Below are positions 4,677 to 8,899 of a DNA stretch of 26,013 bases, piece after piece (positions within the stretch are counted from its first letter, which is position 1; the number at the start of each line of letters is the position of its first letter). This DNA comes from Candidatus Sigynarchaeum calidifontis (lineage in GTDB: Archaea; Asgardarchaeota; Lokiarchaeia; Sigyniarchaeales; Sigyniarchaeaceae). The position numbers and the translations under genes are program-made. The notes under the pieces were generated by a model that searched no databases, had not been told where the DNA came from, and saw nothing but the letters and a program-made list of their open reading frames with translations. The stretch lies in assembly GCA_030587475.2 (NCBI GenBank), contig JAUQYZ020000169.1:1-26013 (forward strand). Direction: 5' to 3'.

Positions 4677-5189
4677 TTATTCTGCCTTGCCATGAAGTCG
4701 TGGCTTGATACTTGTCCACTTGATACACGCATCCTTGCTTATAAACTGGTTTTCGACAAGTAACTTCACGAAATCACCATCTTCGGTTAAAAATGCCCCT
4801 TTTTTCGAGATGGCACACGATGCGATTAAACAGTCAAGTAGATCGTCGTGACCGGCAAGGCGGATCTTCGTAGCTATTGCCATGCAGGCGGGGCTCATAA
4901 GAGGGTCGAGGAGCCGGACAACCTTTGATTCCTTGATAGTCGGAAAGCCCATTTCATACCGCGCGAGGATCGAAGCATCTTGTTGCTTCTTGTATTCCCG
5001 GTTCAGCTTGAACAAGATCTCCAGCAAGCACGTCGTGGGGAGGACGAGATCGAACCCCGGCATACCCCGGCTCCAGAGGCACTCCAACGGATTTTCACCG
5101 CTCTTGGAGCTGGCGAGTTCTTCAACGTCGATGCCAAATAACGGGAGAGCATAAGTCGTGTCGAGGACAAGTAATCGACGCGATTCCAT
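4677..5189 (-). CDS. vapC: PIN-domain ribonuclease (VapC-type toxin)
   Basis: LVLDTT, LLEI, DLLDCLIASCA and FLTED acidic PIN motifs; start overlaps the stop of the upstream antitoxin. Confidence 0.85.
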   Translation of the reverse strand: MESRRLLVLDTTYALPLFGIDVEELASSKSGENPLECLWSRGMPGFDLVLPTTCLLEILFKLNREYKKQQDASILARYEMGFPTIKESKVVRLLDPLMSPACMAIATKIRLAGHDDLLDCLIASCAISKKGAFLTEDGDFVKLLVENQFISKDACIKWTSIKPRLHGKAE

Positions 5190-5452
5190 CAGCGTGCCTC
5201 CAATTTCTTGGCTTCCTCATCCAGCTCGGCTTCGATCGAGCTTGCGGATTGGGACGTGATCCGAGGCAAGTTTAATAGTTCCTTGACGGAAAAAATTCTC
5301 TTGATGATGAGCTGGTTAGGTTCAGCCTCGACGAGCACGTGATCTCCCGGGGCGATGTTTGCAATCTCGCGAAGTGCCTTCTTGGGAAGGATCTCGCCTT
5401 TTTTACCAACGATGATCTCATCTTGCATGAGTAACCATTCGTCGGAAAACAT
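5189..5452 (-). CDS. vapB: AbrB/MazE/SpoVT-family antitoxin (start may be ATG 5428)
   Basis: VGKKGEILPKKALREIANIAPGD is a swapped-hairpin signature; translationally coupled to the PIN gene. Confidence 0.85.
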   Translation of the reverse strand: MFSDEWLLMQDEIIVGKKGEILPKKALREIANIAPGDHVLVEAEPNQLIIKRIFSVKELLNLPRITSQSASSIEAELDEEAKKLEAR

Positions 5453-5904: not shown

Positions 5905-7098
5905 TCAGACTTTCATCGTGATCCAGTCGGCGACCTGAGGGATCATCGAGGGAAGCCCCTTTTCGAAGGCGTTCACGAGCTCGCGGAACATCATCGCGGC
6001 GGTCGGATGGAACATCATGGCGAGATCCATGCCGGCGACCGCCAGGCAGATGGCCGTGTAGCATTCCCAGAGCGGCCCGCGGAGATCGCGGATGCCCCAC
6101 TCGGGGTGCTTCGACTCGCTCATCCAGGCCTCTCTGGCACCCCACGCGTTCGTTGTCCCCGCGCTCATGGGGAAAGCAAGGTCGGTATCGCCCCGTAAAC
6201 CGGCGAGATGATAGCGCTGGTAGATGCTGTACGAGTACTCCAGGCCGTAACCGAGCGTGGCGCACGTCGGATCCATGAGAATCCGGTCGCGGGGAAGGCC
6301 GAGTTCAAGAGCAGAGCGACAAATCTTCTTTTGCGCGTTCGGGTCTAATTGCGTCCATAAAAGAACGTTGTGTCCATATTTCATGGCAATCGGGACTACT
6401 TTATCGACGGTTTCAACCTTCGCGGCTGAGAGCATCAAGCGCTCGCCTTGCGTCGCCGCCGCCACGGCCTCGAACATCTGGAGATCCTTCTCGTCGTTGC
6501 CGGACGAGCCGATCGAAACTGGCACCTTCACCGCCTGCAGCACGTTCTCCATGAGCTTGGCCGACTCCTTCGGCGGCGTGTTCTTGACCGCGGGGTCGGT
6601 CGAGACGAAGTGCAGCGAGAGCATCTGGGCGCCGAATTTCTTCACGGCGAGCTTTGCCCACTCGACCGGATTGTGCAGGATGTCCTCGCCGTACTTGTCC
6701 TTGATAGGGCCAGGCACGTGCGTGACGTGGTCGAACACGTCGTAGATCACGACCGGCGGGTTCGGGTTCTTCGATTTCTCCCAGCCATAGAAATGTGGGA
6801 CGCTCTCGCCACCGATCTTCACGGTCGTGCCGTTGGATCGCTTGAACGTGATCTCCGCGATCTTTTGCGTGTATTGCTGGTAAGGAATCTCGAATTTCGT
6901 CGCCTCCCAGTTAAAATCCTTCAGCGTCTTTCCCGCGGCGAGCTCGGGCGCGATCATGCGCTGCGCGACGCTTGACACGAGTTGCGGCAAGAAATGTAGC
7001 TCCAGGGTCTCGGCGGCGAGATCCACATCGTCTAACTCGATTTCGCCCACGTCTTGGAGGACCTTGGCGAGTGATTTTGATAATTTTTCAATGTCCAT
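5905..7098 (-). CDS. cdhD: CO dehydrogenase/acetyl-CoA synthase complex subunit delta (small corrinoid Fe-S protein subunit)
   Basis: KIGGE, YDVFD, NPVEWAK, STDP, GNDEKD, MDPTCATLGYGLEYSYS, NAWGAREAW, RGPLWE and MMFHP. Confidence 0.93.
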   Translation of the reverse strand: MDIEKLSKSLAKVLQDVGEIELDDVDLAAETLELHFLPQLVSSVAQRMIAPELAAGKTLKDFNWEATKFEIPYQQYTQKIAEITFKRSNGTTVKIGGESVPHFYGWEKSKNPNPPVVIYDVFDHVTHVPGPIKDKYGEDILHNPVEWAKLAVKKFGAQMLSLHFVSTDPAVKNTPPKESAKLMENVLQAVKVPVSIGSSGNDEKDLQMFEAVAAATQGERLMLSAAKVETVDKVVPIAMKYGHNVLLWTQLDPNAQKKICRSALELGLPRDRILMDPTCATLGYGLEYSYSIYQRYHLAGLRGDTDLAFPMSAGTTNAWGAREAWMSESKHPEWGIRDLRGPLWECYTAICLAVAGMDLAMMFHPTAAMMFRELVNAFEKGLPSMIPQVADWITMKV

Positions 7099-7332
7099 GA
7101 ACGTTCACTGGCATTTTTGTCAACAAAAGCCGGATGATCTAGATTCGTCTTTGCGCATATTAAATGTTTAACGAGCCGCGATGCCCGGAAGGCGCCATGG
7201 CCGGCGGATGAATGGTGAATGGACGCGCCTCCCGCGCCGTCCCTTGCATCCCACGACAGCATCTTCAAAAGCATGCGGTTCAAAGATTGCATCATATCAA
7301 TAGAAGCGTCATTGCATGGCATCGTGATGATC

Positions 7333-7497
7333 ATGAGCTCAAGCGAAACGCCCGTTGATGTGCCACCCGCCGTGGGCCGCAAGATCGGGATCGCAATCGC
7401 GATCACGGCCATCGCCGTGGTCGCCATCATCATCGTCTTGATATTTATCACCGGGGGCTTTTTCGCGCCCGCAGTTGGTGGCGGTTGACACGGCTAG
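7333..7497 (+). CDS. Candidate 54-aa single-pass membrane selenoprotein (UGA 7486-7488 read as Sec; C-terminus APAVGGG-U-HG)
   Basis: ATG 7333 (alternative 7327), then MSSSETPVDVPPAVGRK, a hydrophobic helix of more than 20 aa, and GGT GGC GGT TGA CAC GGC TAG. A SECIS-like hairpin and T-tract follow. Confidence 0.65.
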
Positions 7498-7515
7498 GAC
7501 ACCCGAACTCGCGAT

Positions 7516-7607
7516 CACGTGTTTCCGGATGACCATGACGGCAGGCCGCAAAACCCGAGGGCCCGCCCGAGTGCACCCCGCACGGTGCGATCCGGCCGGC
7601 ACGCGTG
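7516..7607 (+). promoter_or_regulatory. Eukaryote/Loki-type SECIS-like element
   Basis: AUGA at 7535-7538. Helix GGCAGGCC (7540-7547) pairs with GGCCCGCC (7560-7567) with one A.C mismatch. Unpaired AAAA 7550-7553 begins after an 11-nt spacer from AUGA. GA 7569-7570 is in register for tandem G.A pairs. Basal helices are CCGGAU/AUCCGG (7525-7530/7590-7595) and CACGUGU/ACGCGUG (7516-7522/7601-7607). Confidence 0.65.
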
Positions 7608-7624
7608 CATCCCTCCACGTGTCG

Positions 7625-7636
7625 TTTCCTTTTTTT
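7625..7636 (+). terminator. Archaeal oligo-T terminator
   Basis: TTTCCTTTTTTT just 3' of the SECIS-like structure. Confidence 0.55.
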
Positions 7637-7711
7637 CTATCGGGTTAATGAAATTTTAAAGGGCGCGGTGGGCGGGGTTCCGCCCGGCATCCACGTCCCG
7701 TGATTGCAAGC

Positions 7712-7935
7712 ATGAGCGAATCGCTAGGGGATCCACGGAAGTACCATCCACCATGGAATACACTCTCATCGCTGGCTCGATCATCATCGCCGCCGTGATC
7801 TCCGTCCTCGTCATGGTCGCGATCTTCCGCGGTGGCGCGGCGCCAGACCCTTGCCATGCGGTTGGCACGGCAATCAAGGCCGTTACCAACTTGCGGGGCA
7901 CCGACCTGTTCTCCATGATCGTGCCTCGCAAATAA
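7712..7935 (+). pseudogene. Diverged tandem paralog of the 7333 micro-protein; either frameshifted or expressed as the 60-aa ORF 7753-7935
   Basis: Collinear matches at a 377-381 bp offset: ATGAGC start, 14/19 nt at 7357-7375 vs 7738-7756, a TM helix ending in GG, GCGGTTG[A/G]CACGGC at 13/14, and CCATGA-N8-CGCAAA. Confidence 0.55.
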
Positions 7936-8127
7936 ACGCGTGCTCGCCGCGGGCGGGTGATAGGGACTAGCAAGTCCTTCGGGAGCCCTTTCGCGAGGCG
8001 TGGTCGCCAAGACCGGTGTCCAGGAACCAAGAGAGACCCGCGTTCGCCATTCTATTAGTTCTTGGGGAAAAGGCGAATCCTTTTAACGTATCTCTAAATT
8101 CTCTAAATAGCCTCGCGGGGATATGCA

Positions 8128-8760: not shown

Positions 8761-8899
8761 GATCGTCGACCGTGTAGGTCGCATCGGGACTCGGTCTTGA
8801 AATTCCGAGGCCCGCACGATATCTCCGCGAACTCCATTTTCCTGATCGGCGACGGGCTAGTAGAATCGAACAGCTTCTACAATGCAATCAAGCATTTTA

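Follow-up and report, generated by a model that had tools for sequence, protein, structure and literature searches.

A probable one-helix membrane selenoprotein family of Lokiarchaeia, associated with a Loki-type SECIS element

The window, that is, the whole 26,013-nucleotide stretch of Candidatus Sigynarchaeum calidifontis DNA analysed here, carries on its forward strand a short reading frame (7333..7497) that starts with ATG at 7333, meets an in-frame TGA directly after Gly-Gly-Gly (7486..7488) and, two sense codons later, ends at what is probably its true stop, TAG (7495..7497). Read with TGA as selenocysteine (Sec, U), the frame specifies 54 residues, with Sec as U52. An alternative in-frame start, ATG 7327, lies two codons before ATG 7333, and the extension of the frame to an ATG at 7219 shows no conservation. 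Arg-Lys, encoded at 7378..7383 ahead of a single predicted transmembrane helix (7384..7452, residues ~18-40, best 19-residue hydropathy 3.34), is a positive-inside signal that would keep the N-terminus cytoplasmic. Compared with seven orthologues, the frame shows a coding pattern (115/63/160 differences at the three codon positions), and the length differences are multiples of three throughout. The arrangement TGA-NNN-GGN-TAG is kept in the orthologues G001, L103, L104, L107 and L111. The gene stands alone: among the family neighbours checked, there is no same-strand upstream selenoprotein gene with which it might share a SECIS element. The divergent cdhD gene (5905..7098, minus strand), a synteny marker in the clade of the window gene, lies outside the selenoprotein unit. 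Elsewhere in the window (4677-5452, minus strand), a PIN-domain gene and an upstream MazE/AbrB-like gene form a probable VapBC toxin-antitoxin pair.

A Loki-type (eukaryote-like) SECIS core (7535..7570, plus strand) starts 49 nt past the TGA. It consists of AUGA (7535-7538), a stem of 7540-7547 with 7560-7567 (seven of eight pairs formed), a 12-nt A-rich loop with AG at its end, and GA (7569-7570); the stem-loop is valued at -11.9 kcal/mol. The element resembles those behind SelD, HdrA, VhuD and VhuU in the same genome. PMC4989117 characterizes lokiSECIS by AUGA, a 9-bp stem, an 11-nt A-rich loop ending in G, and GA; the consensus of the family described below fits these features, the window copy deviating by its 12-nt loop and one mismatch. 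Directly 3' of the core there is a short hairpin (7572..7589, plus strand), which also occurs behind most other SECIS elements of the source genome, and a lower helix (7525-7530 with 7590-7595) is able to close the SECIS and this hairpin into one unit. Across the family, such a hairpin lies 1-5 nt past the core in 73 of 81 distinct elements, is more stable than shuffled sequences and often has a GCAA-type loop; the passages of PMC4989117 consulted do not mention it. Further downstream, a hairpin (7601-7622) preceding a T7 tract (7630-7636) constitutes a probable terminator (7601..7636, plus strand) by consensus match, such hairpins occurring at chance level in the region. A sequence-only reading of this DNA had placed the frame, TGA 7486, TAG 7495, the SECIS-shaped hairpin and the T tract exactly where we find them.

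The Asgard origin proposed in that reading is borne out, the source genome being that of a member of the Lokiarchaeia. It contains tRNA-Sec (ARAGORN), SepSecS and a Sec-containing SelD, together with a PSTK-like gene (E 2e-29) and a SelB/EFSec-like gene (E 2e-71), both being only partial or below the curated cut-off; the Sec machinery that the reading had asked for is thus represented, in the latter two cases by such weaker matches. SelD and VhuD of this genome carry in-frame TGA codons. A motif scan returned 28 SECIS-like matches, many of them due to chance, and ten clear short-form SECIS elements are located behind TGA-containing frames, namely those of SelD, VhuD, VhuU, two HdrA, four unlisted candidates and the window gene. 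The signal from a single genome is nevertheless weak: at 54% GC, this genome uses TGA more than any other stop (in 1609 of its 2886 long frames), and region 7480-7645 folds no better than its shuffles (z 0.12). The pattern of a short transmembrane frame with TGA and a SECIS element 35-140 nt later has one match in 5 Mb, the window locus itself. The excess over chance comes from the homologues, not from the source genome alone.

The genome offered some further observations. Two paralogous small proteins, encoded at C14 (SECIS at 2447, minus strand) and C86 (SECIS at 51322, plus strand), have a Cys-TGA-TGA (CUU) motif, ~35-40 conserved codons past the TGAs and a SECIS each, and fall outside the seven published Asgard families. 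A ~75-aa frame at C249 (SECIS at 6469, plus strand, type II) with CxxU near its N-terminus resembles SelW/Rdx proteins. The ~105-aa frame at C129 (SECIS at 8790, plus strand) is possibly HesB-like; its in-frame TGA encodes the U of S-U-S-G, and its SECIS is strong. Finally, ~20 tRNA genes are clustered at C212 (11601-17650), possibly on a mobile element or a foreign contig.

Searches with the single protein recovered the same-genus orthologue only, other weak matches being due to chance, and the family was reached by cdhD synteny and profiles. The orthologue (G001), whose NCBI entry is a hypothetical Lokiarchaeota protein of 50 aa ending at the TGA, keeps Gly-Gly-Gly-TGA-x-Gly-TAG and the SECIS, and a genome of another genus (G003) has two tandem copies beside cdhD, each with TGA and its own SECIS. 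A profile built from members of these types led to divergent members in a large AT-rich sister family. Profile searches, which treat all three stops alike by reading through them, with a second round over 161 Lokiarchaeia genomes and metagenome contigs, yielded 96 family frames, 85 of them in 81 genomes (about half of the Lokiarchaeia genomes searched) and 11 on eight metagenome contigs. Matches within long frames (signal anchors) were left out of this count, as were six fetched matches: one TGA frame lacking a start, a Gly linker and a SECIS, and five ending in TAA or TAG with no convincing SECIS, four of which represent a separate syntenic locus of poly-Gly type and one an unrelated sequence. 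The Sec-less look-alikes of L095, L102, L159, L167 and L199 are ~45-aa single-helix peptides with a poly-Gly tail and a TAA/TAG end, occupy a syntenic locus of their own and have no convincing SECIS.

In the searches made, the family is confined to two Lokiarchaeial families. These queries did not find it in 14 genomes of family f2, including three single-contig genomes, or outside Lokiarchaeia in 87 genomes of another Asgard class and a 400-genome phylum sample; this falls short of proving absence, and the RNA-model searches scored no more than 150 candidates per genome. No clean homologue with Cys in place of Sec came to light. Proteins of ~110 aa from another Asgard family (L205, L206 and L210), membrane-anchored and with a Cys-x3 repeat tail past the helix, are possibly metallothionein-like surface proteins.

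The family provides the evidence on how the UGA is read. TGA occupies the Sec site in all 96 members, 80 of which are in AT-rich genomes, while neighbouring genes stop at TGA in 34 of 225 cases (15%); the members are kin, so that counts out of 96 are not independent trials. A loose SECIS detector fires behind 91 of the 96, 41-125 nt downstream of the TGA, as against controls of 2 in the reverse complement, 5 in upstream sequence and 3.4 in shuffled sequence, and homologous loci thus share the hairpin of the window. The remaining five comprise one member cut by a contig end, two with variant stems, one that has its SECIS in common with the next copy, and a fifth member. The family stem is 92.8% paired, a percentage that is partly circular as pairing is built into the detector; this applies less to the covariation, with double-sided changes at all eight pairs and a value of 0.66 compared to 0.23 in shuffles (above all 500 of them) and at most 0.24 in slid registers. 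Past the TGA, the codons change synonymously: in 82 of 96 members the +1 codon specifies Gly, Pro, Ser or Ala, both Gly and Pro being written with each of their four codons, and the +2 codon specifies Cys in 49 (TGT 37, TGC 12), Gly in 20 and Ser in 16. This coding constraint, together with Cys at +2, argues that read-through is selected. Gly precedes the Sec at -1 in 76 members and at -2 in 74. Of the GG-U-HG tail highlighted by the sequence-only reading, the glycines therefore hold in part, and the His after Sec is not conserved.

The opposing interpretation, a plain UGA stop yielding a 51-aa membrane peptide that ends in Gly-Gly-Gly, with the hairpin either serving another role or lying too close, may draw on the prevalence of TGA stops in the source genome, on the shortness of the UGA-SECIS distance and on the tail beyond +4, which shows no clear constraint across the 96 members. 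It is, however, hard to reconcile with a TGA that is invariant even in AT-rich genomes, with the coding constraint past it, with a canonical, covarying SECIS, with the 20 members that lack the -1 Gly and with the joint decay of TGA and SECIS described below, and we consider it very improbable. The distance itself counts against recoding of the window UGA: its 49 nt are near the low end of the family range for Sec TGAs (41-125 nt) and below the eukaryotic minimum of roughly 51 nt. On the other hand, of 23 TGAs that act as the following stop, 22 are no more than 37 nt from AUGA. A minimal UGA-SECIS distance, with nearby UGAs acting as stops, has been proposed for Loki in PMC4989117, and the apparent split between 41 and 37 nt in the family fits this rule; the threshold suggested by our data, ~40 nt, would place the 49 nt of the window on the recoded side.

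The window gene's clade has one to three tandem copies, the sister family usually one. In the window, a second copy has decayed: alignment to the intact L106, L107 and L109 copies identifies 7712..7935 (plus strand) as a former tandem paralogue of CxU type, whose start, helix and Pro-Cys-Gly now lie in three different frames owing to two frameshifts, with the ancestral TGA turned into TGG (7863-7865) and the ancestral TAA into CAA. Its damaged SECIS (7915..7960, plus strand), with six of eight pairs as against eight of eight in L106 and L107, lies 52 nt past the TGG, the same spacing as in intact copies. The same alignment rules out 7753-7935 as a Cys homologue. In the second copy of G016, CGA replaces TGA and the loop adenines of the SECIS are lost. 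The joint loss of TGA and SECIS in two decayed copies supports recoding. Two further arrangements were noted among the copies. On L109 (2896-3400), a contig with three copies, two tandem genes apparently share one SECIS, as do HdrA and VhuD; and a copy seen in L071 (3054-3250) and L105 (381-580) has two TGAs three codons apart, then Cys, with the second TGA 32 nt from the SECIS and thus probably a stop, a two-Sec product being possible.

Taken as a whole, the comparisons indicate that UGA 7486 is very likely recoded as Sec, and the window gene very probably encodes a 54-residue one-helix membrane selenoprotein that gene callers stop at the UGA. The earlier proposal of an unannotated single-pass selenoprotein is upheld.

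Members of the family have a common layout: the N-terminus is short and basic, and a single helix is followed by a Gly/Pro/acidic linker and Sec. The helix is strongly hydrophobic (mean best hydropathy 3.09) and poorly conserved (mean column identity 29%), and the Sec follows it by 7-33 residues, the linker having a median of 13. K and R together number 4.0 on average ahead of the helix and 0.1 behind it, and they are more numerous ahead of it in 96 of 96 members. By the positive-inside rule, the sole basis of this prediction, the Sec tail probably lies outside the cell, in agreement with the outward orientation suggested earlier. The linker is neutral to acidic (net positive in two of 96), and the caveat already attached to the first reading, that a basic linker is missing, is apt. 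In 74 of 96 members, Sec has a Cys no more than four residues away, at variable spacing (UxC 49, UxxxC 14, CxU 6, CxxU 3, UC 3; one member has two of these motifs), as expected of a flexible redox tail. The two parts of the family differ in their ends. Sec is at most four residues from the end in all 16 members of the window gene's family-level clade as against 10 of 80 in the sister family, in which tails past Sec are longer (70 of 80) and mildly hydrophobic (0.9 versus -0.25 in other frames); Cys near Sec is missing from 13 of the 16, the window protein included, and present in 71 of the 80. Near-terminal Sec is, on these counts, a trait of the clade and not of the family, so that the SelK-like position of Sec noted before applies to the window protein and its clade and does not as a rule extend to the sister family.

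Three readings of this layout were rejected: a lipoprotein signal, given that Sec lies 7-33 residues past the helix; a ubiquitin-like Gly-Gly end, given that the Gly is not invariant; and a cis-acting leader peptide, the downstream neighbours being variable and often convergent. Family neighbours indeed vary by genus (cdhD, GNAT, TrmB, FGGY kinase, ARMT1-like, MFS), and there is among them no co-conserved partner gene to indicate a substrate.

The layout invites comparison with SELENOK and SELENOS. SELENOK is a single-helix protein that dimerizes through a diselenide; its Gly/Pro-rich tail is cytosolic, and Sec is its antepenultimate residue. The family and these two proteins alike are small and have one transmembrane helix, a Gly-rich stretch and Sec near the C-terminus, with no Trx fold. 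The tail of SELENOK and SELENOS is basic, whereas the family linker is short and neutral to acidic; the family is moreover half the size, has no sequence match and the opposite predicted topology, varies in the position of Sec and often has a Cys adjacent. Distant homology or ancestry to SELENOK/SELENOS would agree with the helix, the Gly-rich stretch and the third-from-last Sec of the window protein, as well as with a host lineage close to eukaryotes and its eukaryote-like SECIS. However, PF10961 and PF06936 give no match at the locus even at E<=1, the SELENOK C-terminus is cytosolic, the tail is long in 70 of the 80 sister-family members, and the 87 genomes of another Asgard class and the 400-genome sample outside Lokiarchaeia did not yield the family; we regard such kinship as very improbable. 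A minimal SelK/SelS relative, one of two options in the sequence-only reading, is accordingly unlikely, while the other, a convergent analogue, stands. As judged from the sequences, the likeness of the family to human SelK is limited to layout, kinship being undetectable, and the family is not to be filed as SelK; the family's mode of action may be SelK-like to some extent, the SELENOK diselenide dimer being a model for the Cys-less form.

The family shares its recoding system with the lokiSECIS genes described so far, VhuU, HdrA-VhuD, PrxL and SelD (PMC4989117, PMC11227280): the same machinery and a 3'-UTR SECIS with AUGA, a short stem, an A-rich loop ending in AG, and GA. Those genes, however, belong to soluble enzyme families found via known Sec or Cys homologues, whereas the present one encodes a foldless single-helix membrane peptide for which no Cys-homologue family was found. 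Pfam/NCBIfam scans detected no homology to the seven Asgard families (SelD, FrhA/VhuU, HdrA, FrhD/VhuD, Prx-like, AhpF-N and DsbA-like), and no Pfam or NCBIfam family came near its cut-off for the window protein, the plain 51-aa frame being included in one NCBIfam scan. The family is absent from the 119 prokaryotic selenoprotein families tabulated in a 2026 review (PMC13188914), and literature searches of limited coverage found no description of it. On this comparison, it is a new putative selenoprotein family on a known recoding system.

How might such a protein work? We propose that the window mRNA's own 3' Loki-type SECIS would let EFSec and tRNA-Sec read UGA 7486 as Sec, with termination at UAG; the basic N-terminus would stay cytoplasmic and the helix would place the flexible Gly/Pro linker and Sec on the outer face. 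The exposed selenolate could then be a tethered redox arm whose targets at the cell surface are disulfides, persulfides/polysulfides or peroxides. In most members it would be resolved by the nearby Cys (UxC, UxxxC, CxU, CxxU or UC) and, in Cys-less ones such as the window protein, by a second chain, with which it would form a diselenide or selenosulfide; re-reduction would presumably come from a transmembrane electron conduit. A parallel is seen in mammalian thioredoxin reductase, a soluble flavoenzyme with a flexible C-terminal Cys-Sec tail: there, too, a mobile arm that contains Gly carries Sec and Cys at its tip, with the difference that the arm is part of a soluble enzyme, while in the family the arm is the whole, membrane-tethered protein. 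The lack of a fold, the variable spacing of Cys and the invariance of Sec favour a redox arm; the missing resolving Cys in the window protein and most of its clade (13 of 16), the want of a clean Cys homologue and that of a conserved partner gene count against it. For the full combination, a stand-alone gene for a tail-anchor-like Sec microprotein with recoding, outward topology and a surface redox arm, we hold belief and doubt in equal measure.

Several alternatives accept a real selenoprotein. The Sec/Cys tip may be non-catalytic and bind soft metals or metalloids (Hg, Cu, Ag, As) at the surface, acting as a scavenger or hand-over arm, in accord with the flexible acidic linker, on which 1-4 residues separate Sec and Cys, and with prokaryotic metal-handling selenoproteins that have CU, UxC and CxxU motifs (PMC13188914); we find this unlikely, as no metal transporter or regulator is among the commonest neighbour clusters and Cys-less members supply one ligand only. 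Somewhat more doubtful still is a selenium sink or gauge, in which the gene either keeps a membrane store of Se or signals Se supply to a membrane partner through the proportion of read-through over truncated product. A minimal protein in which little except the helix and Sec is conserved, the presence of one to three tandem copies, some of them decaying, and a Sec close to the SECIS distance limit would suit it, but the Cys beside Sec, unneeded for storage, is under selection, and the variable, often convergent downstream genes make a cis-acting leader role unlikely. About as doubtful is a third alternative, in which the protein belongs to a larger membrane complex as a small redox subunit whose tail possibly points toward the cytoplasm: small size and a single helix are typical of accessory subunits and the post-Sec tail of the sister family is mildly hydrophobic, yet there is no co-conserved neighbour, the helix is poorly conserved and the charge bias points outward in every member.

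Returning to the favoured interpretation, a membrane selenoprotein with a redox-active surface tail, the family would give a first indication of selenium chemistry on the surface of Asgard cells. There is a very slight probability that it lies at the archaeal origin of the eukaryotic single-pass SELENOK/SELENOS class, or that it is a prokaryotic counterpart which arose independently and already served membrane-protein quality control; if so, a eukaryote-type selenoprotein, and not only the SECIS, would predate eukaryotes. The published Asgard selenoproteome comprises seven families, all recognized by homology to known selenoproteins, and a SECIS search run de novo on one Loki assembly gave no further families. 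That the present family is membrane-anchored, without a Cys-homologue family and truncated in databases suggests that current surveys miss lineage-specific archaeal selenoproteins. The gene would be a compact natural reporter for the action of a eukaryote-like SECIS without SBP2, and the split between 37 and 41 nt predicts a testable minimal UGA-SECIS distance.
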